From Candidatus Saccharimonadota bacterium (GTDB lineage Bacteria > Patescibacteriota > Gracilibacteria > UBA4473), in NCBI GenBank assembly GCA_963677105.1, contig OY781871.1, positions 1 through 32,000 on the forward strand: a DNA stretch of 32,000 nt. Reading direction: 5' to 3'. The position numbers and the translations under genes are program-made. A model generated the notes under the pieces. The model worked only from the letters and a program-made list of their open reading frames with translations, did not search any database and was not told the DNA's origin. The first letter of the stretch is position 1; each line of letters begins with the position of its first letter. Below are positions 1,971 to 22,764 of this stretch, in pieces.

Positions 1971-2657
1971 TTAGAGAGGACAGGTCGCTTCGGCGGGCTG
2001 TTCTTCTCTATCATCTCGAGAGAGAATATTAACTACTTCACTTGAAACAGACTTCATCTTTTCCTCTATAGCAAGTGGTAAGAAAAATTTATCAGGATTT
2101 TCTTTCATTTTCTTTTCAATGGCCTCAATTAAAAATTCAGGTGCAATTTTCAATGCTTTTTGTCGAAATTCCTCTGATACTATTGGATCTGTTTCGCACA
2201 ATGATTGATAGACTAAGCGTTTCAATCTTCCAGAAGTATTATTTGAATCACAGTCACTCTTAATCCATTTTATTTTTGCTGGTAAACCAGGTGCATTATA
2301 TGTTTGAGCTGCTTTTTGAATGTATTCAGAATTACTATCTAAACCTTCCTCTTCTCGACGAACAATAATTTTAGATTCTCTGAAACACTTTCCAACTTTT
2401 TCCTGAGTTTCCAAGCAAATAATGTCAACTGATGTGATTCCCATCTCTTTAGCAAGTTGTTTTGCGAGTTCCGTACTCTCTTCTACGGTAAAGAGTCGAT
2501 CTGTTTTTAAAACATTTAGGACTACGGCGAGCGTTACGGTTTCACCTAATTCCTGTATTGCATTTAATAATGTCTGAAAATGATGTTCCATGGTGGGATC
2601 ACCACTAATACAATACGTTATTTTTGGCATTTCTGGCCCTTTTTCATTAATTGACAT
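1971..2657 (-). CDS. hypothetical protein (no family recognised)
   Basis: 228-aa ORF starting 10 nt after the idi stop, so it is the last gene of the mutL-idi-orf228 unit. Ordinary amino-acid composition, no TM segment or signal peptide. Confidence 0.7.
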   Translation of the reverse strand: MSINEKGPEMPKITYCISGDPTMEHHFQTLLNAIQELGETVTLAVVLNVLKTDRLFTVEESTELAKQLAKEMGITSVDIICLETQEKVGKCFRESKIIVRREEEGLDSNSEYIQKAAQTYNAPGLPAKIKWIKSDCDSNNTSGRLKRLVYQSLCETDPIVSEEFRQKALKIAPEFLIEAIEKKMKENPDKFFLPLAIEEKMKSVSSEVVNILSRDDREEQPAEATCPL

Positions 2658-2667
2658 TGCTCTTGAA

Positions 2668-3207
2668 TTATATTCGAGCGCATTGTGTCAAAAAGCTAGG
2701 AATAGTCAACTGGCTTTCAATTTTTTTGTATAAAATTAAGAACCATGGAGCAAAAGATTGAGGCGTTTTTTCTATCTCTTTGGATAGATTTTCCACAGAA
2801 ATCCATTGATATTCACTGACTTCTTCTAGATTTAATTGTGGTGTCCCGTTCCATATTCCAAAAAATACGTGATCAATTTCATTTTCAATTAAATTATTTT
2901 CAAATTCCGCGCGATATTGAAAAACAAATTTTTCTTCTAATTTGCAATCAAATCCCATTTCCTCTGTTAATCGACGATGAGCGGCATCAAGCGTTTCTTC
3001 ATTTGGAAAAGGATGACTACAGCACGTATTTGCCCAGAGTCCGCCACAATGATATTTATCGAATGCTCGACGCTGAATCAAGAGTTCTCCTTTTTCGTTA
3101 AACACAAGAACAGAAAACGCTCGGTGCAACAATCCCTTTTGATGTACGTCCATTTTTTCTCCTACACCAATTTGCTTGTCGTTGTCATCTACGAGGATAA
3201 TACTCAT
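2668..3207 (-). CDS. idi: isopentenyl-diphosphate delta-isomerase, type 1 (Nudix fold)
   Basis: 179 aa. The blocks LLHRAFSVLVFNEKGELLIQRRA, KYHCGGLWANTCCSHP and AAHRRLTEEMG match the type-1 IDI active-site Cys and Nudix-like regions. Confidence 0.85.
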   Translation of the reverse strand: MSIILVDDNDKQIGVGEKMDVHQKGLLHRAFSVLVFNEKGELLIQRRAFDKYHCGGLWANTCCSHPFPNEETLDAAHRRLTEEMGFDCKLEEKFVFQYRAEFENNLIENEIDHVFFGIWNGTPQLNLEEVSEYQWISVENLSKEIEKTPQSFAPWFLILYKKIESQLTIPSFLTQCARI

Positions 3208-4970
3208 CGATGAAATTCTTTATCTAAGTTTTCAAATGACCAAAAAACATGATTTGGTCGACCGTGTGGACAGAGGTTTCTCCATTGAGTTGTTTCAAAA
3301 TCATCGAGAAGTTTTTGCATTTCTTCTGGTTGCATTTTGTCACCAAACATAACGGAACCGCGACACGCTTTATATTCAAGTATTTTTCGTAACAATTTAT
3401 CCGATATATTTTCACCAACTTGTTCATTTTTGATCCATTCCGCAAGATCAGATAAAAGCGAATCGATATCTTTTTCGGTGAATAAAGAGGGGAGAGAAAG
3501 AATGTTTAATTGCTCATCTAACTCAAATCCGACTTTATTGAGCGTAGTTCGTTCTTTTAATAATAATTCTTTTTGTTCATCATCTAATGCTGGTGCATGA
3601 GGAACAAGGAGTTTTTGTTTTTCTTGAGTGAGTTTTTCTCGATTGTTCCAAAACATTTCAAATCGTTGTCGTTCATGCAGTGCATGTTGATCAAAAATCC
3701 AAAGTCCATTTCTTGCTTCTGCTAAAATATATTTTTGTGCCACTTGACCTACTAATTTCAGTTTACCAATTGGTTCTTCTTGGGCAGAATGTTTTATGTT
3801 TTCAGTTCGTTCTCGATGAAGATCTTGAAAACTTTTTGGCTGAGAAAAAAGTTTTTGAGAAAAATTCGTTGAAGTATTTCGTTGTTCAGATGAAAAATGT
3901 TTTGCTCGAGGAAATGGTTGTTTCGAAATAGATGAATTGTCAGAAAATCTCGCAACAGATCCTTTTGCTCTTAGAGAAGATCGTTCACTTCTTTGTAATC
4001 CAGAAGAAACAGTATTTTTAATAGAATGCCAAATTTCTCCAGGTTCACTGAATTTCACTTCTGTCTTTCGCGGATGTACGTTTACATCGACAAGAATAGG
4101 ATCTATATCGATCCATATTGCGAATTTAGGAAAGAGATGTTTTTCGATTCCAGCTGTTTGGTGATACGCTTCACGAATAGCCCAAGTTAATTTATGATCA
4201 TCAATATGACGACCATTTACCCACAAAAGTTGTGATTTTTTACTTGTTCCACAACGACCAGGTTGAATAACCCAACCAAATATTTTTGTTCCAGAAAAAT
4301 TTCCTTCAACTTCTATGAGATTTACTTTTTCTTCGCCAAGAACATTAGTAACTCGATCAAGTTGAGTTCCAATAGGGAAATCCATTATACATTTTTCGTC
4401 ACGAAAAAGTTGAAATCCTACATGAGGATGTGTAAGCGCAAAAGATTCAACTTCACGACGAATAGCTGAAATTTCTGTTGTGTTGTTTTTCAAATGAGCA
4501 AGTCGTGCAGGAACGGGTTTAAATAAATTCTTTACCTGAAAAATACTTCCATTATTTGCAGGGGCAGATTCTACAGAAAGGAGTTTTCCTGCTGCCATTT
4601 TTACTCGTGTCCCTGACGTATTACTGTTTTGTTTTGTTACTATTTCAAAATCAGAAATAGCCGAAATAGCCGCAAGTGCTTCTCCTCGAAATCCAAAAGA
4701 CTGAATTGAGAAAACGTCACTTATTTTGTTTATTTTGCTTGTAGCATGTCGTAGTACACTTTTTTCAGCATCTTCTGGCGACATTCCGATTCCATTATCC
4801 CGAACTTCAATAAGTTTTTTTCCACCATCTTCAATAAATATGTCGATTTGAGTAGCTTCTGCATCAATTGCATTCTCTACAAGTTCTTTTACAACGCTTG
4901 CTGGTCGTTCTACAACTTCTCCAGCAGCGATTTGATCAGCTACTTCTGATGGTAAAATATGAATTTTCAT
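3204..4970 (-). CDS. mutL: DNA mismatch repair protein MutL (endonuclease-type)
   Basis: GHKL ATPase N-terminus MKIHILPSEVADQIAAGEVVERPASVVKELVENAIDA. C-terminal endonuclease motif DQHALHERQRFE and CPHGRP. Start set at ATG 4970; the track ORF extends to a TTG at 5006. The stop overlaps the idi ATG (ATGA). Confidence 0.9.
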   Translation of the reverse strand: MKIHILPSEVADQIAAGEVVERPASVVKELVENAIDAEATQIDIFIEDGGKKLIEVRDNGIGMSPEDAEKSVLRHATSKINKISDVFSIQSFGFRGEALAAISAISDFEIVTKQNSNTSGTRVKMAAGKLLSVESAPANNGSIFQVKNLFKPVPARLAHLKNNTTEISAIRREVESFALTHPHVGFQLFRDEKCIMDFPIGTQLDRVTNVLGEEKVNLIEVEGNFSGTKIFGWVIQPGRCGTSKKSQLLWVNGRHIDDHKLTWAIREAYHQTAGIEKHLFPKFAIWIDIDPILVDVNVHPRKTEVKFSEPGEIWHSIKNTVSSGLQRSERSSLRAKGSVARFSDNSSISKQPFPRAKHFSSEQRNTSTNFSQKLFSQPKSFQDLHRERTENIKHSAQEEPIGKLKLVGQVAQKYILAEARNGLWIFDQHALHERQRFEMFWNNREKLTQEKQKLLVPHAPALDDEQKELLLKERTTLNKVGFELDEQLNILSLPSLFTEKDIDSLLSDLAEWIKNEQVGENISDKLLRKILEYKACRGSVMFGDKMQPEEMQKLLDDFETTQWRNLCPHGRPNHVFWSFENLDKEFHR

Positions 4971-5021
4971 CCTTGGAATTCTGGCATTTTTTCGAGAAAC
5001 TGGCAATATCTCCTCAGAATG

Positions 5022-5705
5022 AAAACACTTTATGTCGTTGCCACACCAATAGGAAATCTTTCGGATATTACATTTCGAGCGATTGACGTTTTAAAATCGG
5101 TGGACCTAGTTCTTGCCGAAGATACTCGTCACACAAAAATTCTTTTCAATCATTACGACATAAAAACGTCTATTCAATCATGTCATGCACAAACTTCTCC
5201 AGAAAAAATAAAATCAATTTTCGCAGGATTTAAAGACGATGCAACCGTTGCAGTAGTTTCAGACGCAGGAACACCTGGAATTTCAGATCCTGGATTTCGT
5301 GCAGTGAGAGAAGCGATTTTACAAGGATTTACAATTTCTCCGATTCCAGGAGCAAGCGCAATGGCTTCACTAGTTTCTGTTGCCGGAGTTCCAGCTGATA
5401 CGTTTACATTTCATGGATTTTTGCCTCATAAAAAAGGACGTCAGACTTTATTGAAAGAATTTTCAATGGCAGAACGTGCACATATTTTTTATGAATCAGT
5501 TCATCGTTTCCCACGATTACTAGAAGAATTATCAGAATTCTGCGGAGAAGAAAAAATCATTGTTGTTGGACGTGAATTAACGAAGTTGCATGAAGAAATT
5601 TTTCGTGGAACGGTTGCAGAAGCAAAGAAGAATTTTACAACAGAGAATACAAAAGGGGAGTTTGTTGTTTTGATTACTGGAAAAAAGTTTTCATCAAAGA
5701 AATAA
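5022..5705 (+). CDS. rsmI: 16S rRNA (cytidine1402-2'-O)-methyltransferase RsmI
   Basis: MKTLYVVATPIGNLSDITFRAIDVLKSVDLVLAEDTRHT, VSDAGTPGISDPG and IFYESVHR are typical of RsmI (tetrapyrrole-methylase fold). Start taken at ATG 5022 rather than the upstream in-frame ATG at 4959. Confidence 0.9.
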   Translation, partial: KTLYVVATPIGNLSDITFRAIDVLKSVDLVLAEDTRHTKILFNHYDIKTSIQSCHAQTSPEKIKSIFAGFKDDATVAVVSDAGTPGISDPGFRAVREAILQGFTISPIPGASAMASLVSVAGVPADTFTFHGFLPHKKGRQTLLKEFSMAERAHIFYESVHRFPRLLEELSEFCGEEKIIVVGRELTKLHEEIFRGTVAEAKKNFTTENTKGEFVVLITGKKFSSKK

Positions 5706-5706
5706 A

Positions 5707-5741
5707 AAGAAAGCGAAGTCATTGGACTCCGCCTTCTTTCT
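5707..5741. terminator. imperfect hairpin between convergent rsmI and the SLH-protein gene
   Basis: CGAAGTC (5714-5720), loop ATTG, GACTCCG (5725-5731) with one mismatch. Flanking AAGAAAG and CTTTCT could extend the stem. No clean U-tract. Confidence 0.35.
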
Positions 5742-5762
5742 CCCACTCCTCTGTATGAATCA

Positions 5763-8168
5763 TTAGAGAGTTTCTATGTCATATCCACCGAAAGAGAAAA
5801 ACCCAACAGGTTTTACATTATTTTTTGTTTGAATCCATTCTGGTAAGAAAAGAACAAATCGTAAAGAATCTCCTTGTGCTATTTCACTTGCCATATCAGC
5901 TTTTACGAAAATAGTTTTTGGTCTATTTGTAATTCCTAAGCTTTTATTAAAATATATTTCCACCATATCTCCTTTAAGAGCTGTTTTGTTCGATAAAACA
6001 CTTCCTTCACTTGTTTCAATCCATACTTTGTCAAAGTTTTCAGATGCTCCGTTTCCTACAACCTTCAGTTTTATAGATTGTATTTCTGCAGAATTACTTG
6101 CTGCAAGTTCTAGTTTGTGAACAATCACATTTTTTTGATTTTCTCTCACTCGAATTGATCCGTGTTGAAAGTTACTTGGAGTAGAAACTTTTAGGACATT
6201 AGAGAGATCGCTTCCAGTATTCTCTTCTGTATAAGTAAGATATTTATATATAGCGACAGCAACTTCATTACGAGTTAATAGCTGTGCTGGTTTTAAATAT
6301 CGAGAATCACGATGAGGAAATAAGTTGTACTTGTGTGCTACACCAGCGTATTTTCCAAACCAATCAGAATCAAATGCATCATCGTAGTGATAGATCATTC
6401 CTTTTTGAAGACTAAACGTCTCAGTTAACATCTTCAAAAATTCAGCCGTATTTACCGTTGTAGCTGGTTTAAATAATCCATTTGGATAACCATCTACAAC
6501 TCCTCGTTCAGCAGCTTTTATAACGTATTTCACATACCATTCTCCCTCTTTTACATCTGGAAATCGTCCATTGTTCTGTAAACTCCCAACAGTTACACCA
6601 TCTGCAAGTAATAGGAATTTTGATAATTCTGCACGATTTACATCACGATCACCTTTGAATTCTCCATCAGGGAATCCACCAATAATTGATTTTGATCGGA
6701 GATAAGCAGAGGCTTTCCCTTCAATAGAATTTTTATCAGTATCTGGGAAGTAATATTGTGAAGGAACTACAATTTCTTCGTCTACTGGCACGGTTATCAC
6801 TTCGTCTTCATAGTTTGAATTACTTTCATCTAATTTAAAATCCATACATATGTTTTGGCTTGAACGACTTTGCTTTTGATCTTTTAATGCTCTTACGTAA
6901 TAACAATGTTTCACATAATCCTTTTTTAGTAAATTCTTATTAAGGTTTAGTAAATCATATTGTATATCTTTTAATTCTAATTGATTTTCTTTCGTTGTTG
7001 CAATATAAGAGTACGCTCTATTGTTTACTGATCTATAAACTTGAAATTTGTCTGCACCAGAACTTCCCCATTGTAAAATCCATTTATTGGAACCATTTTT
7101 TCGAATTTTTACATTAAATGGAGCTTTTACAGTTTCTTCTTCGTCTTCATCAAAATCAATACACACTTTTTCACTTGGTTCGCTTTCTTTCCCATTTTTT
7201 AGTCCTGTTGTATAAAAACAAACTTTAGAGACTGGTGTTGAGAAATGATTCCAAAAGAGCATTTTTTTGCTTTCAGTAGATGTCATTGCTCGTTCCCAAG
7301 AAGACGGTTGGTTATTCATATTAAAGTGTTGTGCATACACATTAAATCGTTCTGCATTGTGATTATTCCAGGTCAAATAAAAATTCTGTTTATTATGATT
7401 TGTTTCAGCAGGCATATCTTCTGTGCGTGTAATTTTTAAATTAAAAGGAGGTTTTATAATGGGATTATTTTGTTCTGGTAGACAAGCACCATCTTTACAT
7501 CCATTTGGACATGTGAAAGTATGATCTCCTGCATATTCGCCATTATTACAAACATATTCCTGTAAACGCTTTCCGTCATTCCAACAACTGTCAAATTTTG
7601 TTTTCTTTTCTCCATTATCAGAGATAGTTACCGCTCCTTTTTTATAATAATTTTTACCTCCATCTGTGTCTGTACAAGTTAAATTTCCTGGTTCTGGTTC
7701 TATTACGTTATCTTCAAAATCAATACACACTTTTTCACTTGGTTCACTTTCTTCTCCATTTTTTAGACCGATTGCATAAAAACAAACTCTAGATGTAGGC
7801 TCTATGAAATGATTTCGAAAAAACAATTTCTTCTCTTTGGTAGCATCGGTTACTTTTTCCCAATCAGAAATACTTTCATTTTTATATGAACTTTGTTGGT
7901 ACACTCGAAATTGATCTGCATTATTGTTTTGCCAAGTTAAGTAGAAATCATATGTAGGATTATTTGGAGTTTTTGTGATTTTTAAATTAAAAGGAGGTTT
8001 AATTTCCTGGGACAGTACCTTCGTTCCTAAATCTAGAGACACAACTTTACTCGATAAAAGTGATAAATTGTCTATTGCTTCTACCGTTGGGAATAAAAGA
8101 AAAGAAAAAGTTAGCGCCATTCCCAGAGCAGCTAATCTTTTACCGAAACGCCAGTGAGAAAACTTCAT
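5763..8168 (-). CDS. large secreted surface protein: signal peptide, 3 Fn3-like modules, Cys-rich module, 3 SLH domains, C-terminal beta-rich domain
   Basis: Start set at ATG 8168 (MKFSHWRFGKRLAALGMALTFSFLLFPTVEA, a signal peptide). Three SLH-like repeats: FPD..IGGFPDGEFKGDRDVNRAELSKFL, FPDV..VVDGYPNGLFKPATTVNTAEFLKML and LFPH..YLKPAQLLTRNEVAVAIYKYL. Three repeats begin (I/V)K(P/A)PFN(L/V)KI. The extension in the track to 8309 has no signal peptide. Confidence 0.9.
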   Translation of the reverse strand: MKFSHWRFGKRLAALGMALTFSFLLFPTVEAIDNLSLLSSKVVSLDLGTKVLSQEIKPPFNLKITKTPNNPTYDFYLTWQNNNADQFRVYQQSSYKNESISDWEKVTDATKEKKLFFRNHFIEPTSRVCFYAIGLKNGEESEPSEKVCIDFEDNVIEPEPGNLTCTDTDGGKNYYKKGAVTISDNGEKKTKFDSCWNDGKRLQEYVCNNGEYAGDHTFTCPNGCKDGACLPEQNNPIIKPPFNLKITRTEDMPAETNHNKQNFYLTWNNHNAERFNVYAQHFNMNNQPSSWERAMTSTESKKMLFWNHFSTPVSKVCFYTTGLKNGKESEPSEKVCIDFDEDEEETVKAPFNVKIRKNGSNKWILQWGSSGADKFQVYRSVNNRAYSYIATTKENQLELKDIQYDLLNLNKNLLKKDYVKHCYYVRALKDQKQSRSSQNICMDFKLDESNSNYEDEVITVPVDEEIVVPSQYYFPDTDKNSIEGKASAYLRSKSIIGGFPDGEFKGDRDVNRAELSKFLLLADGVTVGSLQNNGRFPDVKEGEWYVKYVIKAAERGVVDGYPNGLFKPATTVNTAEFLKMLTETFSLQKGMIYHYDDAFDSDWFGKYAGVAHKYNLFPHRDSRYLKPAQLLTRNEVAVAIYKYLTYTEENTGSDLSNVLKVSTPSNFQHGSIRVRENQKNVIVHKLELAASNSAEIQSIKLKVVGNGASENFDKVWIETSEGSVLSNKTALKGDMVEIYFNKSLGITNRPKTIFVKADMASEIAQGDSLRFVLFLPEWIQTKNNVKPVGFFSFGGYDIETL
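6837..8003 (-). repeat. three tandem ~97-104-aa Fn3-like coding repeats, with a Cys-rich insert between repeats 1 and 2
   Basis: Repeat 1 is about 7713-8003, repeat 2 about 7146-7457, repeat 3 about 6837-7127. A 31-nt exact DNA repeat, caaaatcaatacacactttttcacttggttc, occurs at 7151-7181 and 7715-7745. Confidence 0.85.
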
Positions 8169-8210
8169 TATAGAGGGTATTAATAAATAAAATTCGTTTT
8201 TCATTATGAG

Positions 8211-8237
8211 TAACGCGTGAGCTTTGTTTTTGTGACA
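8211..8237 (-). promoter_or_regulatory. ECF-type promoter (TGTCAC-N16-CGTTA) upstream of the SLH protein gene
   Basis: The minus strand reads TGTCACAAAAACAAAGCTCACGCGTTA. It has the same hexamer, spacing and -10 as the site upstream of the adjacent ECF sigma gene. It lies 42 nt upstream of ATG 8168 and just downstream of a terminator. Confidence 0.6.
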
Positions 8238-8260
8238 CAAAAAAAGATGATTTTTATACA

Positions 8261-8294
8261 TAAAAAAAAACGTCAAGAAATGACTTCTTAACGT
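8261..8294 (-). terminator. rho-independent terminator after the sigma / anti-sigma / 126-aa operon
   Basis: The minus strand reads ACGTTAAGAA-GTCAT-TTCTTGACGT (10-bp stem with one mismatch), followed by a run of 9 T. Confidence 0.8.
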
Positions 8295-8321
8295 TTTTAT
8301 AAATAACAATTTAAAGAGAAA

Positions 8322-8702
8322 TTACAGCTTTTTAAGTGAATCTAATTTTCGTTCAGCAGCTTGAATTGTTTGCTCAAGACTTTGAACATCTTTTCCGGAT
8401 TTCTCAAGAGTGCGTACTTTATTTTTCAAATCTGTAATTTTGTTTTCAAGAGTTTGTGTGTAACCATTTTTCATTTCTTCAATACATTCCTTTATAGAAG
8501 CTGATGATTGAGGATCAGCATTATTAATTTGATCATCAATAGCTTTTACACATCGTTTTTTACTTGAAGAACAGAGTGTTTGACTATTTTGTACTTTTGA
8601 TCGTAGTTCTGAAAGATTTTCTTCTTGAGCAGAAGCAAATGTTTCAGGAGATAAAAGGAGTAAAAATGCAAATCCGATACCGAGGAAGAATAATTTTTTC
8701 AT
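8322..8702 (-). CDS. small secreted coiled-coil protein
   Basis: 126 aa. Signal peptide MKKLFFLGIGFAFLLLLSPETFASA, then a helical Lys/Glu/Gln-rich sequence with 3 Cys. Starts 3 nt after the upstream gene stop. Confidence 0.75.
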   Translation of the reverse strand: MKKLFFLGIGFAFLLLLSPETFASAQEENLSELRSKVQNSQTLCSSSKKRCVKAIDDQINNADPQSSASIKECIEEMKNGYTQTLENKITDLKNKVRTLEKSGKDVQSLEQTIQAAERKLDSLKKL

Positions 8703-8705
8703 TGT

Positions 8706-9206
8706 TTAAATATTTTTAAGAGTATTTTTTGGTGACATCACCAAGAGATCTTCAATTGTTTCAAGTTCTAATAATTCACGAGAAATGAGTTCGAAATCAG
8801 ATTCGATTTCTTGACTCAATAGAGTTGCTTCTGAAAATGTTTTATTTACAGCAACTTCTTGTTTCCAGAACATAAAAGAGATAGTCATCATTCCCAAAAC
8901 AGGAATCATTGCCCACGTTTTTTTCTTATGAAACATCATTTTGAAAAATGTTTTCCAGTCATTTAAGAAAGAAAATTGTTTTTCTTTCAATGGATCAGGT
9001 AATTGCTCTAATAAAGAATTAAAAGAAGCAATTGATGGAGAAATATCTACATCAAAAGATTTTAATGAATCAATCATTTTTAAGTTTTCTTGAATTTCAA
9101 GCTGTTCTTCTTTCGAAAGATTTTTGAAATCAATATTGTCTTCTTCAAGCATTTGAAACGTTTTGTTCCAAATTTTTGAATCGATACCGTTTTTGTTTTT
9201 ATTCAT
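8706..9206 (-). CDS. putative single-pass membrane anti-sigma factor (non-ZAS)
   Basis: 166 aa. Starts 1 nt after the ECF sigma stop. One TM segment, WAMIPVLGMMTISFMFW, at about aa 98-114. No HxxxCxxC zinc motif. The function is inferred from position only. Confidence 0.55.
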   Translation of the reverse strand: MNKNKNGIDSKIWNKTFQMLEEDNIDFKNLSKEEQLEIQENLKMIDSLKSFDVDISPSIASFNSLLEQLPDPLKEKQFSFLNDWKTFFKMMFHKKKTWAMIPVLGMMTISFMFWKQEVAVNKTFSEATLLSQEIESDFELISRELLELETIEDLLVMSPKNTLKNI

Positions 9207-9207
9207 T

Positions 9208-9777
9208 TTACAAATGGGTTTTTAAGTGAACCATCGTACGAAGTTTTTTTAATCCTCGACATTGTACTTGTCGAATGGTTGTTTCTGGCTTTTTCATAAT
9301 AAGCGCAATTTCATTGCTTTTAAATCCGTTTATAAAACGGAGAGTAAGAATTTCACGTTGATCTTCATTCAATAATGAAAGAGCTCGTTGAAGTGCTTCT
9401 TTCGATTCTTTTTGTTGAATTTTACGAGAGGGATTGTCTTCTGAAAAAGCTTCTATTTGAAAATTCGGCATTTCTTCATGAGAAATAAGTATATCTTTTT
9501 TCTTCTTAAAAAAATCAATCACAGTATTTCTTGCTACTGTGAAAAAATAAGCAAGAGGGGAAACACCTTTATCAGAGAATTGTTCTATAGATTTAAATAC
9601 TTTTAGAAAAACAGTTTGAGTTAAATCTTCTGCCGTTTCTTGATCTCCTATACGACGATAAATATATCGAAACACTGGTGTAAAGAAATCGTTATACACC
9701 ATTCCATATGCTTCGCTGTCACCATTCTTTGCAAGAATCATAAGTTCGTCTGGAGATGAGTTAGTATATTCAGTCAT
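9208..9777 (-). CDS. RNA polymerase ECF (sigma-70 family group 4) sigma factor
   Basis: 189 aa. Region 2: FTPVFRYIYRRIGDQETAEDLTQTVFLKVFKSIEQF. Region 4: DQREILTLRFINGFKSNEIALIMKKPETTIRQVQCRGLKKLR. Confidence 0.9.
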   Translation of the reverse strand: MTEYTNSSPDELMILAKNGDSEAYGMVYNDFFTPVFRYIYRRIGDQETAEDLTQTVFLKVFKSIEQFSDKGVSPLAYFFTVARNTVIDFFKKKKDILISHEEMPNFQIEAFSEDNPSRKIQQKESKEALQRALSLLNEDQREILTLRFINGFKSNEIALIMKKPETTIRQVQCRGLKKLRTMVHLKTHL

Positions 9778-9795
9778 AGCGGTCTTTCATCTTTC

Positions 9796-9822
9796 TAACG
9801 ATTTAATCTTCGTTTTGTGACA
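9796..9822 (-). promoter_or_regulatory. ECF-type autoregulatory promoter (TGTCAC-N16-CGTTA)
   Basis: The minus strand reads TGTCACAAAACGAAGATTAAATCGTTA and ends 18 nt upstream of the sigma ATG at 9777. Confidence 0.6.
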
Positions 9823-9847: not shown

Positions 9848-10852
9848 TTAATAATGTCGTTTCCAGCGACGTAATTTTTCTACTACAAAATTGAGCCAAT
9901 ATTTCCCTGTCAATGGTAAGTCTTGTGCTCGTAAATATTTTCGTTCATCTCCTCCAAATCCACGTTTAAATCGAGATAATCCTGCCCAAGGATGATTATT
10001 TTTTTCGCTTGGACTTACGCCCCAAAAATTAAATTCTTTACATCCACGAGACTTTGCCTCTTTTATCGCCGCCCAAAGTGTAGTGTGTGCGCCCGGGATT
10101 TTACTTAAAACGCTTGCTCCTTGATGATAATATCCAGCATGAGAGTCAAAAAGAATTACAGAACTCGCAATATTTTTTCGATCATGTTGCGCTGTAAATA
10201 TTTGGCAATCATCTCCGAAAACATCAATTTCAATTTCAGTAGATTTTCGTGAAAATGGTGTGAATTTTTGTCGAGCAGCTGTTTGTTCATGTAGTTTCCA
10301 AAACTTTTGTAAATCTTCAGGTTTATTTCCAACAGAAAGTTTGATTCCGCTTTTTTCTCCTTTACGAACTTCGTAACGCGTAGATTTACGCATGTTTTTT
10401 AATATTTCACCTTCCTCTTGTTCTAAATTTAAAACCCATGTCCGATCAGGATTTATATGTAATGGAGCTGGAATAAAGTTTAATTTTCGAAAAACTTCTT
10501 CCGTTAATTCTGGTAAAAGTGGAGAGACTCGAATGAAATCACAGCGTTCTTTTTTTCCCAGCTTTTTTAATTCTTTTAGTAAAGCAGGAAGTACTTCATC
10601 AATGTGTGCAGAGAGAATAAGTGGGCCGTGAGCAACATGTAAAAAAGTTCCTCGACGAGCCATTATTTTTTGACATTGAAGTGTTCCGACAAGTTTTTCT
10701 CCATAAAAAGCACCAAGACGAAAGTTTTTTTCTCCTATTTTTTCTCGAAACACAGAAAACTTTTCTCCCTGTAAGAAAGTTTTTACTCCAGAAAAACTTT
10801 CCCAAAATAATTGAGCTTCTTTAGTTGAAATCGATCGAATTTGTAATATCAT
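9848..10852 (-). CDS. FemAB-family peptidoglycan interpeptide-bridge aminoacyltransferase
   Basis: The blocks KSTRYEVRKGEKSGIKL, HQGASVL and FNFWGV..PWAGLSRFKRGFGG are typical of the FemAB/FemX family. Start set at ATG 10852; the track start at 10876 is a TTG. Confidence 0.8.
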   Translation of the reverse strand: MILQIRSISTKEAQLFWESFSGVKTFLQGEKFSVFREKIGEKNFRLGAFYGEKLVGTLQCQKIMARRGTFLHVAHGPLILSAHIDEVLPALLKELKKLGKKERCDFIRVSPLLPELTEEVFRKLNFIPAPLHINPDRTWVLNLEQEEGEILKNMRKSTRYEVRKGEKSGIKLSVGNKPEDLQKFWKLHEQTAARQKFTPFSRKSTEIEIDVFGDDCQIFTAQHDRKNIASSVILFDSHAGYYHQGASVLSKIPGAHTTLWAAIKEAKSRGCKEFNFWGVSPSEKNNHPWAGLSRFKRGFGGDERKYLRAQDLPLTGKYWLNFVVEKLRRWKRHY

Positions 10853-10896
10853 CTTTTTTCGCGCGAAGTATAGCAAAATATCGCTTGAGGGAGAAT

Positions 10897-12051
10897 TTAT
10901 TTTGTCTCAAATAATCTTGTAAACCGTTCAATATCTGTAAGAGAAGTTCGTCTGTTTGTGGGAAATGTGACATAGTTTTTTATGAATTTCTCTGCATTTG
11001 GACATTGTCCCTTTTTGTAATCGAATTTTTTTAAATCAACGCCACGAGGAGCAATTGGTTCTCCGTCCCATTCGCCAAGATCAAATCCTATTTGTTTTGC
11101 TTTATTTAAAACCGTTTCACGATCAATCCCTGTCGCAATAACACGAAAAAAGTTTTCTGGAACGATGATTTGTGCGTTTGGAAAAAGCGTAGTGAGGGTT
11201 TCTTTCCAGGCGTTTGCAATTTTTTCTCGGTGAAGAAGTTCATTTTTCCGTTGATTCAATGCTCGAAAAAGAATTTTTTGTTGAACTTTTGATAGTTTTG
11301 TTTGAGGGAAGTCTTCAATTCCAGAACGTTCATTCGATGAAACAGCCCGAGGAAGAAGTTTCGCTTTTGCGAAAAATCCAGCGATACATTTTCCTCCCAT
11401 TTTCCACCAAGGAAGTGAAATAGCTAGTACAAGTGGTTGAATTGCATGACGAAAAGACCAGCTCCAAGAGGGGAGTTTTAGTTTGTGATTTTCAACAAGT
11501 TCTTTTCCAAGAGAATTGTTTCGCCACACAAGTGCTCCACCAGAAACACAAGAAACATCTTTTTCTCTTCCGAAACTTAACAATCGATAATCGGCAATTG
11601 GTTCTCCTGGTTCAAAAAAATGTGCGCCATCTTCCACAACAACGATGTTGTTTTTCTTGGCGATTGTCATAATTTTCTCAATATTTGCTTGTTGACCAAA
11701 CGTATGTGGAACGATCAGAAGTCCGAGTTCTTTTTTATGCTTCTCAATTTCTTGAATATCGATAAGTCCATTTTTATCTGTATCAAGCCAACAGATTTTT
11801 TTCCCTTTGCTTAAAAAGGGTGTCGCCATAACAGCACAACAAACAGCCGGAATTCCTACTTTTTTATCATTAGGAACTATTTCAGCCAAAATTCCTAAAA
11901 GAGTTCGAGCCGTAGAAGCAAGACGGAAATTTTTCGTTTTAAAATGTGGGAAAAAATTACACACTTTAAACGATGTGAACGTACAACTCCACGCAAATAA
12001 CGCGTCATTGAGTGTGAAATTCGGCCCCAACTGATTTGAAACAAGTTTCAT
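10897..12051 (-). CDS. DegT/DnrJ/EryC1/StrS-family PLP-dependent aminotransferase
   Basis: 384 aa. VVEDGAHFFEPG followed by LLSFGREKDVSCVSGGALV, the family SF..K...GG motif with a candidate PLP lysine. Confidence 0.75.
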   Translation of the reverse strand: MKLVSNQLGPNFTLNDALFAWSCTFTSFKVCNFFPHFKTKNFRLASTARTLLGILAEIVPNDKKVGIPAVCCAVMATPFLSKGKKICWLDTDKNGLIDIQEIEKHKKELGLLIVPHTFGQQANIEKIMTIAKKNNIVVVEDGAHFFEPGEPIADYRLLSFGREKDVSCVSGGALVWRNNSLGKELVENHKLKLPSWSWSFRHAIQPLVLAISLPWWKMGGKCIAGFFAKAKLLPRAVSSNERSGIEDFPQTKLSKVQQKILFRALNQRKNELLHREKIANAWKETLTTLFPNAQIIVPENFFRVIATGIDRETVLNKAKQIGFDLGEWDGEPIAPRGVDLKKFDYKKGQCPNAEKFIKNYVTFPTNRRTSLTDIERFTRLFETK

Positions 12052-12097
12052 TCTAGGGACATTGTAATGAAAAGAGGTGTATTATAAAGTCTAAAAT

Positions 12098-12754
12098 TTA
12101 AAGTGTTTTTGATTTTTCTATAAAATCTAGAATTTCTTTATCATATTTTTCGAGCATATACATTAAATCATGGGTAAAGAGATGGGGTTGTTTTTTCATA
12201 TCATCAAGAAGATCCTTTAATTCATACCAAAATAATCCGGAGGCTTCGCCATCAACAAGTTTTACGGCTCCATCATAAATCCCAATAAAGAAATTCTTTT
12301 TATTTCCAATAAGAACTTTTTCATTATCAATTATTTTCGTAAATGAACGTGTTTTCGTTCCAAGCTTCTTTATCAATGCGATCGTATTAAGGTATACATG
12401 GAGCGTGTTGAGGGCTTTTTCAAAATCTTCATTTGAATTTAAAAGAAGAGATGGAACTTGTAACTCTTGAACGGTTTCAACCATAAGTGTGTGCTCAACA
12501 GATTCTCCATGTTGCACATGTCCTCCCATAGATTTATCTAATAATCCAGGGTTGTGATTTTTCTTTTTACTTCTTTTTTGAATAAGAAGTTCTCCTTTTT
12601 TATTAATAATTAAAACATCAACAATTTCTACTGCTCGAGTAACTGGATGCCCTTTTTTGTGAGCTTCAATAGAGTCATTATAAAATCGATTTCGCTCAAT
12701 TGGATAAGAGTTAATCCAATCATCAGTGTCGTATCCAGTTACAATTTCACCCAT
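12098..12754 (-). CDS. Nudix-family hydrolase (degenerate Nudix box)
   Basis: INKKGELLIQKRSKKKNHNPGLLDKSMGGHVQHGESVEHTLMVETVQELQV resembles a Nudix fold and box. Start set at ATG 12754, which removes the overlap with the upstream gene that the track start at 12859 creates. Confidence 0.7.
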   Translation of the reverse strand: MGEIVTGYDTDDWINSYPIERNRFYNDSIEAHKKGHPVTRAVEIVDVLIINKKGELLIQKRSKKKNHNPGLLDKSMGGHVQHGESVEHTLMVETVQELQVPSLLLNSNEDFEKALNTLHVYLNTIALIKKLGTKTRSFTKIIDNEKVLIGNKKNFFIGIYDGAVKLVDGEASGLFWYELKDLLDDMKKQPHLFTHDLMYMLEKYDKEILDFIEKSKTL

Positions 12755-12776
12755 TAATTGCAATATAACAGAAAAT

Positions 12777-14258
12777 TTATTTTTGAAAAATATTTTCAAT
12801 ATTTTTTGATAAACGCGATTCAAGTAACACTGCGTCATTTTCTTTGATTTCCTTTGCAAGTTTTTTCAATAAATTCATGTCATCTCCGTGGAACTTTTCT
12901 TCTAAAATATCTTTTGCTGTTTTTTCAAAATCGTGACGAAACCAAAATACTTCAGCGTTGATTTCTTTTAGTTTTTCAAAAACTTCGCGATGAATATTTT
13001 CAGAATCTTTTCCTAGTTCTCGAAGAGGAATCCCAACAAATATTTTTGTACCAGTAAACTTTCCTAAATGATCTATCGCTCCTAGAACTCCATCTGGATT
13101 TGCAGAATATGGATCAAGTAATAGCGTTGCTTTGTTTTTTAATTTCTTTACATGCAAAGCTCGCTGAAGAGGTGGAAGCTCTTCTAAAGAGTTTTTTAAT
13201 TCTTCAGGAGAACATCCAGCTTCTCTGGCTGCCTCAAGTGCCAAAAGAGCATTTCCTACAAAAAATTCTCCAGCCCACGGAAGAATAAAATCTTGTCCAT
13301 AAGCGTGAAATTTTGTTTGAACAATGTCGGAGGAAATATTTTCTGCAACAGATTTTGTAATCCCAATAGGAGTTGCTGTGATTTCAGAATCGTTAAATAT
13401 TTCTATAAGTGCAGGCGTGTCAGCGTTAAAGAAGATAGTTTTACTACACGATTCTGCAAGTTCAAATTTCGCTTTCCTGAGTTTTTCAGCATTTCCAAAC
13501 AGAGAAACATGTTGCGCGTTTAATCCAGTGAGAATTCCCGTGTCAGGTTTCACAAAAGAACAAATTTGACGAATTTCTCCTTTTTTATATGCGCCCATTT
13601 CACAAACAAAAAACTTCTTTTGAGGTCCAGTTGTAGGATCTGTGAAAAATCGATTATTTCTGTGAACAAGTCGTGCAATTGCAATTTCATTGTTTTCGTT
13701 TCCCGGATTTGTAAGTACAGAATCAGCACCGTATTTTTCACGTAACAAATGAACGAGAATTTTTTTTGTAGAACTTTTTCCATAACTCCCAGTAATTCCA
13801 ATGCACGTCACATTTTTTCCTTGAGCAATGATTTCTGCTGCTTTATTAAAAATAGAACGTTTTCGTATCCACACAGGAAAAGCAGATATTTTCACCGAAA
13901 GGGGAATAGTAAACCAGATCGTTCGTTCCCAAATAATAAGTGCTTTTACCCAATTCCACTCCCAACGCCAGTTTACGATATTACTGAAAATATCATGAAG
14001 TCCAACAATTACGCCAATAGAAACGAGAATAAAAATACATCCAATAATAAGAATGCGACCAGAAAGTTGTGGTCGAGGTAAAATTCCTGGAAACATCCAA
14101 AAATTTAATAGATTTTTACGTCCATCGTATGTACGAAAATACGCTAACATTCGATCGATACGATATTCACGAAGTTGCCAAGATTGAAGCCACGAGCTTG
14201 CAGTTCGTATTCCAAGAACGATAATTCCTAATCCGATAAGCAATTCCCATTCATTCAT
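12777..14258 (-). CDS. murF: Mur ligase, MurF-like (UDP-MurNAc-peptide D-Ala-D-Ala ligase), with an N-terminal ~130-aa membrane extension
   Basis: P-loop GITGSYGKSSTKKIL and NPGNENNEIAIARL, typical of MurF. The N-terminus has hydrophobic segments LLIGLGIIVLGI, ILIIGCIFILVSIGVIVGL and IWFTIPLSVKISAFPVW. A 4-nt ATGA overlap joins it to the upstream hydrolase gene. Confidence 0.8.
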   Translation of the reverse strand: MNEWELLIGLGIIVLGIRTASSWLQSWQLREYRIDRMLAYFRTYDGRKNLLNFWMFPGILPRPQLSGRILIIGCIFILVSIGVIVGLHDIFSNIVNWRWEWNWVKALIIWERTIWFTIPLSVKISAFPVWIRKRSIFNKAAEIIAQGKNVTCIGITGSYGKSSTKKILVHLLREKYGADSVLTNPGNENNEIAIARLVHRNNRFFTDPTTGPQKKFFVCEMGAYKKGEIRQICSFVKPDTGILTGLNAQHVSLFGNAEKLRKAKFELAESCSKTIFFNADTPALIEIFNDSEITATPIGITKSVAENISSDIVQTKFHAYGQDFILPWAGEFFVGNALLALEAAREAGCSPEELKNSLEELPPLQRALHVKKLKNKATLLLDPYSANPDGVLGAIDHLGKFTGTKIFVGIPLRELGKDSENIHREVFEKLKEINAEVFWFRHDFEKTAKDILEEKFHGDDMNLLKKLAKEIKENDAVLLESRLSKNIENIFQK

Positions 14259-15124: not shown

Positions 15125-15165
15125 TTAAAGTTGTATTTTTCAAGACATTCGTTATCTTCCAAGCA

Positions 15166-17158: not shown

Positions 17159-17185
17159 TGACACAAAAAAAACATATCTGCGTAT
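17159..17185 (+). promoter_or_regulatory. ECF-type promoter (TGACAC-N16-CGTAT) upstream of the secreted 196-aa protein gene
   Basis: Reads TGACACAAAAAAAACATATCTGCGTAT. Same architecture as the site upstream of the neighbouring ECF sigma gene. Confidence 0.6.
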
Positions 17186-17239
17186 AAGTGTGTGAGGTTG
17201 GCCAAACTTCCTTACAATTAATTCGTTACTATTTACAAA

Positions 17240-17830
17240 ATGAACAAAAAAATAATTGGTCTCGGTGTAGCAACTCTTTCATTAGGAGTAATGCTCGTTA
17301 CCCCAACAGCAAATGCTTTCTGGGGAGGAAATACTTCTGAAAGTTTTACAGAAATGAAGCAAATGATTCAGTCATTCAATTCATGGGAAGATTTTAGAGA
17401 AGCTATGAAAGAGAAACGTGAAGCAGGAAAAGTGGAACGAGAAACTATGCAAGAAAAAGTTTCACATGAAGTAGAGAAACTTGAAAACGGAGTTGTTATT
17501 ACAACTACTACAGATGATGCTGACGTTTTAGAAAAAATGAAAGAACGACACGAAAAAGGCGAAAACCGACAAGGACGAAATCAAGAAAACGTAGTTCGTT
17601 TAGTTGAAACATTAGAAAACGGGTTTCGTACAACTATTACAACAGAAGATGAAGATACGTTAACACGATTGCACGATCGAGCAGATAACGGATGGAAAAT
17701 GAATCGTAGACACGGGAAACGGAACAAAATGGAAAATCGAAAAGAAGACGGACAGAAGATGAATCGTGGGAAAGGACGACGAGGACAAAGAAATGGATAT
17801 GAATTCGAAGACGAAGTAATAGAAAATTAA
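17240..17830 (+). CDS. secreted, highly charged protein with an internal duplicated motif and a basic C-terminal tail
   Basis: Signal peptide MNKKIIGLGVATLSLGVMLVTPTANA. Two copies of the motif: VEKLENGVVITTTTDDADVLEKM and VETLENGFRTTITTEDEDTLTRL. Arg/Lys/Asn-rich tail. Confidence 0.8.
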   Translation: MNKKIIGLGVATLSLGVMLVTPTANAFWGGNTSESFTEMKQMIQSFNSWEDFREAMKEKREAGKVERETMQEKVSHEVEKLENGVVITTTTDDADVLEKMKERHEKGENRQGRNQENVVRLVETLENGFRTTITTEDEDTLTRLHDRADNGWKMNRRHGKRNKMENRKEDGQKMNRGKGRRGQRNGYEFEDEVIEN

Positions 17831-17895: not shown

Positions 17896-17922
17896 TGACA
17901 CAAAATGAAAATTAAGGCGTAC
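17896..17922 (+). promoter_or_regulatory. ECF-type autoregulatory promoter (TGACAC-N16-CGTAC)
   Basis: Reads TGACACAAAATGAAAATTAAGGCGTAC and ends 10 nt upstream of the sigma ATG at 17933. Confidence 0.6.
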
Positions 17923-17932
17923 TTATTTCTGA

Positions 17933-18508
17933 ATGAAAGATTTTTCTACTTATTCTGATGAACAATTAATCCCTCTTTCTTTGGAGAATGAAGAAGCGTT
18001 TGGGGAAATTGTTCATCGTTATGAATCGCGATTAAGACGATACGTTTTTCGTATTGCATCCTTCCCAGAGGAAGAAGTAGAAGAGATTTTGCAAGACGTA
18101 TTTCTTTCGGTTTGGAAAAATCTTCGTGGATTTGATACAAAAATAAAATTCAGTAGTTGGGTTTATCGTATTGCTCATAATCGAACGATTTCATTATTTC
18201 GGAAATTCAAAACTCGTGGACGAGATAAAGAAACAGGGTTGACACCTGATTTATTTTTGCCAACCACAGAAAATTTCATTGATGATTTTGATTCACAGAT
18301 TAACGCAAAACTTATTCAATCAGCATTAGAAGAAATACCAAATAAATATAGTGAAATTCTTATCTTACGGTTTTTTGAGGATTTGTCTTACGATGAAATT
18401 GCGGACGTATTAAAATGCTCAATTGGAACTGTGAGCACGCTTATCGCACGGGCAAAAAAGAAGTTCCGTGCAGTGATAGATGAATTAAATATTCCATTTT
18501 CAAAATGA
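17933..18508 (+). CDS. RNA polymerase ECF sigma factor (second paralogue)
   Basis: 191 aa. Region 2: RLRRYVFRIASFPEEEVEEILQDVFLSVWKNLRGFD and WVYRIAHNRTISLFRK. Region 4: YSEILILRFFEDLSYDEIADVLKCSIGTVSTLIARAKKKFR. Confidence 0.9.
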   Translation: MKDFSTYSDEQLIPLSLENEEAFGEIVHRYESRLRRYVFRIASFPEEEVEEILQDVFLSVWKNLRGFDTKIKFSSWVYRIAHNRTISLFRKFKTRGRDKETGLTPDLFLPTTENFIDDFDSQINAKLIQSALEEIPNKYSEILILRFFEDLSYDEIADVLKCSIGTVSTLIARAKKKFRAVIDELNIPFSK

Positions 18509-21799: not shown

Positions 21800-21889
21800 G
21801 GAGAAGTGCCAGAGTGGTCGAATGGGGCACCCTGCTAAGGTGTTGTACTCGCAAGGGTACCGAGGGTTCGAATCCCTCCTTCTCCGCCA
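21800..21889 (+). tRNA. tRNA-Ser (anticodon GCU), long variable arm, encoded CCA
   Basis: Acceptor GGAGAAG/CTTCTCC. Anticodon arm GCACC-CTGCTAA-GGTGT. Long extra arm. T-arm GAGGGTTCGAATCCCTC. 3' GCCA. Confidence 0.9.
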
Positions 21890-21965: not shown

Positions 21966-22040
21966 GCCGAGATAGCTCAGGGGTAGAGCAACACATTCGT
22001 AACGTGTAGGTCGTGAGTTCGATTCTCATTCTCGGCTCCA
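21966..22040 (+). tRNA. tRNA-Thr (anticodon CGU), encoded CCA
   Basis: Acceptor GCCGAGA/TCTCGGC. D-arm GCTCAGGGGTAGAGC. Anticodon loop TTCGTAA with an A-C mismatch at the base of the stem. T-arm GTGAGTTCGATTCTCAT. A candidate promoter ATGACA-16-TATCAT lies at 21930-21957. Confidence 0.85.
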
Positions 22041-22098: not shown

Positions 22099-22764
22099 AT
22101 GAATACTCTTCTCACAGAACATGCAGAACAATTCGAAAAATTATGGGAGATTTTTTCCGATTGGAATAGCAAGATTAATCTCTCTGCAATTCGTGAAAAA
22201 GAAGAGGTTTTTGAAAAACACTTTAAAGATTCTTTATTGATAACAGAGTTCTTTGATCTTAATGATAAAAAAATATTGGATATTGGAGTGGGTGGGGGAT
22301 TTCCCACTTTGCCATTAGCGATCGTTACTAATTCTCAATTCACGTGTCTCGATAGTGTTGGTAAAAAAATGAAAGCGGTTGCTGATATGGCGCAGCAATT
22401 AGGGTTGAAAAATGTGAAAACGATACACGGGCGATTTGAGGATTTTGCACAAACAAGAAACTATCGCGAACAATATGATATTGTGACAGCTCGAGCCGTT
22501 GCTCCATGGAACGTTTTACTCGAATACGCACTTCCGTTTGTGAAATTAGGTGGAAGTTTCATTGCGTATCAAGGTCCAGCCATTGTGGACGATTTGATAA
22601 ATTTCAATGGTTTAGAAAAAAAACTGGGAGGACAAATTGTTCGAAAAGGAAAGACGATTCTTGGTGATAGTGAAAGATATTTTATTGAAGTTGAGAAAGT
22701 AAAACCAACACCAAAACAATATCCTCGAGAAAATGGTGTTCCCAGAATGGATCCGCTTGTGTAA
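22099..22764 (+). CDS. rsmG: 16S rRNA (guanine527-N7)-methyltransferase RsmG (GidB)
   Basis: 221 aa. INLSAIREKEEVFEKHFKDSLL, SAM motif ILDIGVGGGFPTLPLAIV, and VTARAVAPWNVLLEYALPFVKLGGSFIAYQG. Confidence 0.9.
   Translation: MNTLLTEHAEQFEKLWEIFSDWNSKINLSAIREKEEVFEKHFKDSLLITEFFDLNDKKILDIGVGGGFPTLPLAIVTNSQFTCLDSVGKKMKAVADMAQQLGLKNVKTIHGRFEDFAQTRNYREQYDIVTARAVAPWNVLLEYALPFVKLGGSFIAYQGPAIVDDLINFNGLEKKLGGQIVRKGKTILGDSERYFIEVEKVKPTPKQYPRENGVPRMDPLV

Follow-up and report, generated by a model that had tools for sequence, protein, structure and literature searches.

A BldN-like ECF sigma factor of a Patescibacteria genome and a predicted second target, an SLH-anchored surface protein, are preceded by the same promoter-like motif

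Extracytoplasmic function (ECF) sigma factors typically recognize promoters in which the -35 element contains AAC and the -10 element CGT. In Bacillus subtilis, the promoters of SigW/RsiW, SigX, and SigM are autoregulated and combine a -35 element ending in AC with a CGT-containing -10 element at a spacing of 16-17 nt, and in Escherichia coli the genes of the RpoE-RseA-RseB system are arranged in the order sigma factor, membrane anti-sigma factor, and exported third protein. In the standard ECF design, an autoregulated sigma factor has a partner in the membrane and shares its promoter type with a target close by (PMC7826278). In Streptomyces, BldN directly activates the chaplin and rodlin genes, whose products form the surface sheath, and the gene for its anti-sigma factor has a separate BldN-dependent promoter (PMC4255298, PMC6101532). 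BldN belongs to group ECF121 and carries an N-terminal pro-extension that is removed by proteolysis (PMC7826278), and proteins resembling its partner RsbN diverge very fast (PMC4255298). A comparable logic is seen in the sigma-I factors of cellulolytic clostridia, which are autoregulated and activate genes of the cell-surface cellulosome (PMC6056542). The present analysis concerns a stretch of 32,000 nt (positions 1 to 32,000 of contig OY781871.1, assembly GCA_963677105.1; hereafter the window) from a Candidatus Saccharimonadota bacterium placed in Patescibacteriota, in which the operon of a BldN-like ECF sigma factor is followed by the gene for a large SLH-anchored surface protein, each preceded by a copy of one promoter-like motif. 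Patescibacteria cannot be grown alone, and to our knowledge next to nothing has been learned of how transcription is regulated in these members of the candidate phyla radiation; a literature search for ECF sigma factors in the group gave incidental mentions only.

The motif, TGTCAC followed by any 16 bases and CGTTA (TGTCAC-N16-CGTTA), is found exactly twice in the window, both times on the minus strand and in an intergenic position (Table 1). The first copy, P1, reads TGTCACAAAACGAAGATTAAATCGTTA from 9822 to 9796 and ends 18 nt short of the sigma ATG at 9777; the second, P2, reads TGTCACAAAAACAAAGCTCACGCGTTA from 8237 to 8211, ends 42 nt short of an ATG at 8168, and is located in the 60-nt gap between the terminator of the sigma operon and the open reading frame (ORF) of the SLH protein. 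In 100 dinucleotide-preserving shuffles of the window the pattern never occurred (mean 0.00 matches, largest count 0), and when one mismatch was allowed, a single additional site emerged, antisense within a coding region (22462-22488). A weight matrix trained on 21 sigma-upstream sites from other loci, with the window left out, gave P1 22.6 bits and P2 20.3 bits, the top two scores in the window; the next match, at 15.7 bits, falls inside a gene, and the best of 30 window shuffles reached 18.8 bits. The spacers of P1 and P2 are unlike each other outside the A-tract, and the two sites therefore share a bipartite motif, not a duplicated DNA segment. On re-reading, the positions and sequences that the first-pass annotation had given for both sites were as written, and its account of a shared hexamer, an A-tract, an exact 16-nt spacer, and CGTTA agrees with the double occurrence of the pattern; the layout it had drawn, from the promoter through the sigma factor, the 166-aa and 126-aa proteins, and the terminator to the second promoter and the SLH protein, is backed by the ORFs, by Pfam, and by a hairpin search. 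That the window sigma factor uses both sites as promoters and controls the SLH gene directly is judged to be probable, at roughly 0.78, from sequence comparison.

Table 1. Features of the sigma-SLH region in the window, and positions of the related embedded sites in other loci.
Feature	Locus	Coordinates	Strand	Basis or remark
P1, predicted ECF-type promoter of the sigma operon	window	9796..9822	-	-35 TGTCAC + A-tract, 16-nt spacer, -10 CGTTA
P2, second copy, ahead of the SLH-protein gene	window	8211..8237	-	exact match
ECF sigma factor, 189 aa, BldN-like	window	9208..9777	-	Pfam, NCBIfam, and PDB matches
166-aa single-pass membrane protein (gene 2), putative anti-sigma factor	window	8706..9206	-	position, topology
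Gene 3, secreted helical protein of 126 aa, Cys pair conserved	window	8322..8702	-	signal peptide, orthologues
Hairpin with T-run, resembling an intrinsic terminator, at the end of the sigma operon	window	8256..8298	-	15-pair stem, 8298-8266
SLH-anchored surface protein	window	5763..8204	-	Pfam SLH 2.8e-19; plus signal peptide
Fn3-like repeats of the SLH protein	window	7710-8027, 7140-7457, 6825-7139	-	
Cys-rich region of the SLH protein	window	7458-7709	-	
SLH module of the SLH protein	window	about 6237-6785	-	
C-terminal beta domain of the SLH protein	window	5766-6227	-	
Terminator-like hairpin after the SLH gene	window	5704..5741	-	17-pair stem
Embedded motif copy, Patescibacteria	L004	10766-10795		
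Embedded motif copy, Patescibacteria	L003	3518		
Embedded motif copy, Patescibacteria	L081	5461		
Embedded motif copy, Patescibacteria	L082	5227		
Embedded motif copy, Patescibacteria	L001	1204		
Embedded motif copy, Patescibacteria	L010	10710		
Embedded motif copy, Patescibacteria	L090	1654		
Embedded motif copy, Patescibacteria	L165	10778		
Embedded motif copy, Chloroflexi	L016	6563		
Embedded motif copy, Chloroflexi	L099	6384		
Embedded motif copy, Chloroflexi	L100	10200		
Embedded motif copy, Chloroflexi	L106	1427		
Unit downstream of the embedded site, Chloroflexi	L016	6585-6635		
Unit downstream of the embedded site, Chloroflexi	L099	6406-6455		
Unit downstream of the embedded site, Chloroflexi	L100	10222-10270		
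Unit downstream of the embedded site, Chloroflexi	L106	1449-1497		

The identity of the sigma factor can be narrowed down by several kinds of comparison. It matches Pfam Sigma70_r2 (1.8e-17, residues 33-94), Sigma70_r4_2 (1.7e-11, residues 127-179), and Sigma70_ECF, and it scores 104 bits against the NCBIfam sigma70-ECF superfamily model, for which the cut-off is 42.9. The top NCBIfam model is TIGR02952 (BldN family), at 142.4 bits, which is under the equivalog cut-off of 206.45. Among solved structures, the best relative is the BldN chain of the RsbN-BldN complex (6dxo_A, E 1.8e-22), with SigW second (1.2e-10); the sigma-2 region aligns to BldN without gaps, and the alignment begins at residue 12. 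The 189-aa protein has no N-terminal pro-extension of the kind that characterizes BldN, and its ATG at 9777 agrees with the N-terminus of the orthologue in locus L161. All the named relatives returned by a protein look-up are Patescibacteria. By its sequence, the window sigma factor is best designated BldN-like and not a demonstrated member of the BldN family. A reading of the BldN promoter off a Streptomyces locus (L038) was discarded; the sigma factor encoded there is a BldN paralogue (about 45-50% identical), and no clear motif was apparent.

Measured against the described systems, the locus is closest to BldN-RsbN. BldN is the nearest characterized sigma factor by sequence, a gene for a single-pass membrane protein adjoins the sigma gene in both cases, secreted surface proteins are the targets and a second sigma-dependent promoter lies downstream of the sigma gene (both predicted for the window), and the partner diverges fast, RsbN there and gene 2 here. 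The two differ in that the window sigma factor scores under the family cut-off and is without the pro-extension, in that no similarity between gene 2 and RsbN could be detected, in that the operon contains an extra secreted helical protein, in that the predicted target is an SLH-anchored multidomain protein and not an amyloid sheath, and in the host, which is an actinomycete for BldN and a Patescibacteria genome here. The SigW, SigX, and SigM systems likewise have a two-domain sigma factor, a co-transcribed single-pass membrane partner (putatively gene 2 in the window), and a similar promoter architecture, whereas the sequence similarity is far below that to BldN, gene 2 does not carry the zinc-binding anti-sigma motif, and the window -35 element is TCAC with an A-tract where B. 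subtilis ECF promoters have AAC with a T-tract (PMC6056542). With SigI-RsgI, the window shares a sigma factor with autoregulation and a membrane anti-sigma factor (both putative here), a -35 element with an A-tract and a CGT-type -10 element, and (predicted) targets at the cell surface, which in clostridia form a multi-protein system, but SigI lacks sigma-4 and belongs to another family (PMC6056542), unlike the window sigma factor with its canonical sigma-2 and sigma-4. Lastly, the gene order resembles that of RpoE-RseA-RseB, the model behind the suggestion in the first-pass annotation that the small secreted protein may be a third regulatory component; gene 3, however, is short and helical, has a conserved Cys pair, and bears no similarity to RseB. 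The statement that no system of this composition had been described was thus overstated, as the BldN and sigma-I systems give precedents (PMC4255298, PMC6101532, PMC6056542).

The evidence for autoregulation comes from orthologous loci, which were drawn from genome and metagenome collections, the nearest relatives being obtained via an exact-protein look-up. In nearly all the Patescibacteria orthologues examined, with sigma factors 39-75% identical to that of the window, nnTCACAAA, 13-14 unconserved bases, and CGTTAT lie in succession just upstream of the sigma gene, and the bipartite motif is kept at the sequence level upstream of sigma orthologues in more than 25 loci. The -10 CGT(TA) is present at both window sites, and the -35 core is CAC in Patescibacteria and AAC in the relatives from Chloroflexi (TGTAAC). 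A search for the exact pattern, which covered the window and 172 fetched related loci (1.90 Mb in total for the loci), found 15 matches in the latter against about 0.9 expected, all 15 of which share the strand of the sigma gene and occupy one of two positions, immediately upstream of that gene or at a single fixed place downstream; matrix matches of at least 20 bits are distributed over the same two positions. In 12 of the 21 training loci (L001, L002, L003, L004, L007, L011, L081, L082, L083, L084, L088, and L165), and also in L170, the sigma ATG lies 5-7 nt after CGTTA, the distance being exactly 6 nt in 10 of the training loci; a transcript starting at the usual distance from the -10 element would therefore begin at or next to the start codon, which would imply leaderless or near-leaderless sigma mRNAs in many Patescibacteria. 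With a confidence that is high for a reading of sequence only, P1 is predicted to be the autoregulatory promoter of the window sigma factor.

The motif could instead be the site of another DNA-binding protein, a repressor or an activator, or a structural intergenic element, and not a promoter of this sigma factor. The -35 hexamer with CAC in place of the canonical AAC would fit such a view, and a weak sigma-70-like match near P2 (8276-8247, 9/12) means that another promoter could serve the SLH gene, but such matches are no more common in the region than in shuffles (17 vs 17.3). Moreover, the geometry is kept, with a fixed spacer of 16-17 unconserved nt between two conserved blocks, the site precedes the sigma start codon by 5-7 nt in most orthologues, a position that is promoter-like and not operator-like, and this sigma family and the motif are found together across Patescibacteria and, with the motif as TGTAAC, across Chloroflexi. 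This explanation is accordingly regarded as very unlikely, and a promoter read by the window sigma factor is preferred. Two further features of sigma upstream regions may be recorded. In L162, two tandem copies of the motif are found upstream of the sigma gene, TGTCAC-N16-CGTTT at 727-753 and TGTCAC-N16-CGTTA at 791-817, the proximal of which abuts the annotated ATG. In the window, an out-of-frame ATG at 9790, 5 nt after the CGTTA of P1, opens a six-codon ORF (MKDRYD; 9770-9790, minus strand) with a TGA stop that overlaps the sigma start codon region; this may represent an upstream ORF that is leaderless and linked to the translation of sigma, or it may be meaningless.

For the SLH gene as the second target, the loci of the closest clade are informative. 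L162, from a different metagenome and with a sigma factor 61% identical, repeats the three-gene operon. Between this operon and the predicted promoter of its SLH gene, two genes have been inserted (2523-3112), one antitoxin-like (76 aa) and one for a PemK toxin, and beyond them lies a second site at 3178 (TGTCAC-N16-AGTTAT, 21.8 bits with the matrix), 43 nt before the ATG of an SLH gene (3248-6256). The protein encoded by this gene is more than 1003 aa long and contains four CARDB domains in addition to SLH domains; its SLH module is 61% identical to that of the window over 204 residues (E 2e-77), and the displayed N-terminal domains are unrelated, Fn3-like and Cys-rich in the window and four CARDB in L162. 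In L168, with a sigma factor 53% identical, TGTCAC-N16-AGTTAT is located at 1990, 19 nt after gene 3, and is followed by a gene for a secreted protein. The second site has thus been kept across an insertion and a full swap of the displayed domains, which argues for selection acting on the link between this site and the SLH gene. As relatives have the SLH anchor in common but vary in the N-terminal domains on display, the regulated output looks like an exchangeable surface-display protein.

Both proposals of the first-pass annotation concerning regulation draw support from these comparisons: an autoregulatory ECF-type promoter, from the occurrence of the motif ahead of nearly all the Patescibacteria sigma orthologues examined, and control of the SLH gene in common with the sigma operon, from the recurrence of the second site in the two closest loci that reach far enough, with an SLH orthologue in L162. 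Motif and synteny are both retained in L162, and the site together with a secreted-protein gene in L168. It might still be that the two copies in the window result from chance or from a lineage-specific coincidence, the SLH gene being a mere neighbor. Adjacency alone is weak in this respect, as genes for SLH proteins are abundant in these lineages (261 matches at E<=1e-10; the genome of the window itself contains at least two more paralogues), and a matrix scan at the SLH genes of two unrelated genomes, L171 and L172, gave no site of at least 13 bits. Against coincidence, zero matches are expected by chance in the window, P2 is correctly oriented in the short gap between terminator and gene, and L162 keeps both the site and the orthologous SLH anchor despite the toxin-antitoxin insertion and the replacement of the display domains, and a coincidence is considered highly improbable. 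The direct control of the SLH gene by the window sigma factor is therefore retained as the favored interpretation.

A second ECF sigma factor is encoded in the window (sigma-2, 17933-18508, plus strand), 27% identical to the first (sigma-1) and SigW-like by NCBIfam. It is associated with a motif of its own, TGACAC-N16-CGTA(T/C), two copies of which are located on the plus strand, one at 17159-17185 ahead of a 196-aa gene without assigned function (17240-17830) and the other at 17896-17922 ahead of sigma-2 itself. Two sigma factors, each with its own variant and a nearby second copy, form the pattern expected of sigma-specific promoters. Nevertheless, P2, or both sites, might be read by sigma-2 or by both sigma factors, with the SLH gene in an overlapping regulon. 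The two motifs are indeed alike (TGTCAC-N16-CGTTA vs TGACAC-N16-CGTA, both with an A-tract), and ECF sigma factors of B. subtilis that are only 25-32% identical show regulatory overlap (PMC6056542). However, each sigma gene has its own variant, P2 is of the sigma-1 variant at all specified positions, the sigma-1 matrix gives the sigma-2 sites less than 10 bits, and orthologous loci keep a sigma-1 type site beside a sigma-1 type operon. Overlap of this kind appears unlikely, and P2 is more readily attributed to sigma-1. Around sigma-2, it was also observed that the gene is followed by one for a 259-aa protein, the two overlapping via ATGA, that CCAAAC-N16-CGTTA occurs at 17206-17232 (plus strand), 7 nt before the ATG at 17240, and that CGTTAT occurs at 15147-15152 (plus strand), 13 nt before an ATG at 15166; both of the latter have an ECF-like -10 element and score below 10 bits with the sigma-1 matrix.

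The SLH protein is 813 aa long if translated from the ATG at 8204 and 801 aa from that at 8168. Its anchor consists of two stretches matching Pfam SLH, preceded by an N-terminal hydrophobic signal sequence, so that tandem SLH repeats and a signal peptide are both present. The SLH module is 55-61% identical to those of many SLH proteins from Peregrinibacteria, Gracilibacteria, and other Patescibacteria, the N-terminal regions of which are varied, and the C-terminal beta domain is common to the window protein and some SLH proteins of Gracilibacteria; the pattern is one of domain swapping on a conserved SLH anchor. The protein contains three internal repeats, 59% and 33% identical. An AlphaFold2 model of the repeat (pLDDT 81.7) has seven strands, and Foldseek against the PDB placed almost exclusively FN3 domains among its top 50 matches (E down to 6.5e-5, TM 0.6-0.66). 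No significant Fn3 similarity was found by sequence with Pfam (E<=1), with hhalign against an fn3-containing SLH homologue, or with a PDB profile search. The model thus supports an Fn3-like fold for the repeats, and the earlier description of Fn3 repeats is borne out at fold level, though not by sequence profiles. With respect to the start codon, the ATG at 8204 (8202-8204) is in frame, 6 nt after the CGTTA of P2 and 12 codons upstream of the ATG at 8168, and this 6-nt spacing equals the modal one at the leaderless-looking sigma orthologues; with the ATG at 8168, the signal peptide is closer to the canonical form, and the 42-nt distance resembles the 43 nt of L162. Translation could possibly start at 8204, from a leaderless transcript, or at 8168.

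The two small genes of the operon are less readily classified. Gene 2 starts 1 nt after the sigma stop codon and encodes one hydrophobic span. Its position is conserved, and the gene-2 products of orthologous loci can be aligned with its N-terminal cytoplasmic domain; a homologue search returned nothing but itself and the L161 orthologue. A match to GldL was rejected, being confined to the membrane span, and the zinc-binding anti-sigma motif was not found in gene 2. Gene position, translational contiguity, and topology, and these only, point to gene 2 as the putative anti-sigma factor. The gene 3 product has a signal peptide and is helical, with weak coiled-coil-like matches that are all below the Pfam and NCBIfam cut-offs. 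Its orthologues occupy the same place in L161, L162, and L168, with C51 and C73 invariant, and in most of the distant orthologues, too, gene 2 is followed by a secreted helical protein that contains Cys. Homology between the short form of the window clade and the long form was considered and dropped, as hhalign matched the signal peptide only. Searches of Pfam and NCBIfam linked gene 3 neither to RseB nor to another known anti-sigma modulator; the protein may be a regulatory partner or merely a conserved output.

Several observations weigh against control of both promoters by the window sigma factor or limit its reach. The CAC core of the -35 element is unlike the AAC typical of ECF promoters, and the SLH genes without a site in L171 and L172 have been mentioned above. 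At the downstream sites of L162 and L168, the -10 element is AGTTAT and not CGTTAT, so that the C of the key CGT is not conserved. The close clade past gene 3 comprises three loci only (the window, L162, and L168), and the L168 contig stops before any SLH module could appear, with its downstream protein truncated. Site density was assessed for the window and the fetched loci. As for the putative anti-sigma factor, searches of gene 2 against Pfam, NCBIfam, and the PDB (phmmer) retrieved no known anti-sigma domain, a profile of 21 gene-2 products gave no match to RsbN (6dxo chain B) in the PDB at E<=10, and the AlphaFold2 model of gene 2 is unusable (pLDDT 47), with three N-terminal helices at low confidence.

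On this basis, the following course of events can be envisaged. In the resting state, the 166-aa single-pass protein, co-translated with the BldN-like sigma factor, would hold the latter at the membrane until a signal from the envelope or the surface frees it. The released sigma factor would take RNA polymerase to P1, thereby amplifying the operon for itself, the 166-aa protein, and the 126-aa secreted protein, which the terminator would insulate from the next gene. It would also take polymerase to P2, giving rise to the large secreted protein, in which an SLH wall anchor carries the Fn3-like and Cys-rich regions for display.

Many distant orthologues have a complete copy of the motif inside the gene-2 ORF, about 700-930 nt past the sigma start. 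It occurs in Patescibacteria (L001, L003, L004, L010, L011, L081, L082, L085, L090, and L165) and, with TGTAAC as the -35 element, in Chloroflexi (L016, L095, L099, L100, L105, L106, and L107). The embedded copy codes for V-T-x5-R-Y just ahead of the membrane span. When the loci were found by protein first and the codons read afterwards, ACA, CGT, and TAT were used in 10 of 10 cases, and Val was GTC in six Patescibacteria and GTA in four Chloroflexi; the fixed codons therefore indicate constraint on the DNA. In Chloroflexi, AAGGAGG appears about 25-30 nt after the embedded site, with an AUG 6-8 nt further on. This AUG is in frame just before the membrane span (I-R-R-F-S-M-A) in L016, L099, L100, and L106, and its equivalent heads a stand-alone gene in L095, L105, and L107; the truncated membrane protein would carry a DUF5667 ectodomain. 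The Chloroflexi element has the appearance of an internal unit, dependent on sigma, for the expression of a gene-2 product that lacks its N-terminal part. A hairpin after the embedded promoter was tried as an additional element and dropped (RNAalifold -0.65 kcal/mol, 3 pairs; single-sequence z-scores +0.5 to -2.3). The embedded copy is absent from the window's clade in the loci compared, and a full-text literature search found no paper on an internal promoter in an ECF anti-sigma gene. Although they have no direct bearing on the two window sites, these copies show a second, putatively sigma-dependent promoter downstream of the sigma gene to be an old feature of the BldN-like family. A broader reading is possible, though doubtful. 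The window module may be a branch of an ancient BldN-like family, present in Actinobacteria, Chloroflexi, and Patescibacteria, with the switching of surface-coat proteins as its conserved role. Ancestrally, a sigma promoter inside the anti-sigma coding sequence would have let the active sigma factor produce a truncated anti-sigma protein, with the membrane span and ectodomain and without the sigma-binding part, as feedback or decoy. The window clade would then have lost the internal unit, its second promoter driving an SLH protein with exchangeable display domains, and the Cys-pair protein would be the anti-sigma factor's extracellular partner.

The surroundings of the module can be described briefly. 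A run of cell-wall genes (9848-14258, minus strand) lies directly upstream of P1 on the same strand; its products are a transferase of the FemAB family, an aminotransferase of the DegT type, a NUDIX protein, and a Mur ligase. Between the FemAB gene and P1, no clear terminator was found. Three tRNA genes are the sole Rfam matches in the window (21800-21886 and 21966-22037 on the plus strand, 24384-24455 on the minus strand), and the Rfam scan of 5.5-10 kb gave no match. For most genes of the window, the 20 nt next to the start contain no Shine-Dalgarno sequence. The reading frames end in TAA in 21 cases, in TAG in 6, and in TGA in 3; since TGA serves as a stop, the standard genetic code applies in the window, though the relatives of the SLH module include Gracilibacteria.

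The mechanism envisaged here is the standard ECF design and extends known biology rather than changing it. What is new is the host lineage, the definition of the promoter, the gene-2 and gene-3 partners that resemble nothing recognizable, and a predicted target that is anchored by SLH domains and has exchangeable domains. The locus provides a concrete Patescibacteria sigma factor with a defined motif and a predicted target, and the motif can be used for regulon prediction in hundreds of metagenome-assembled genomes. Moreover, a wall-anchored protein with swappable display domains is of the kind that would be expected in host-cell attachment or phage defence.

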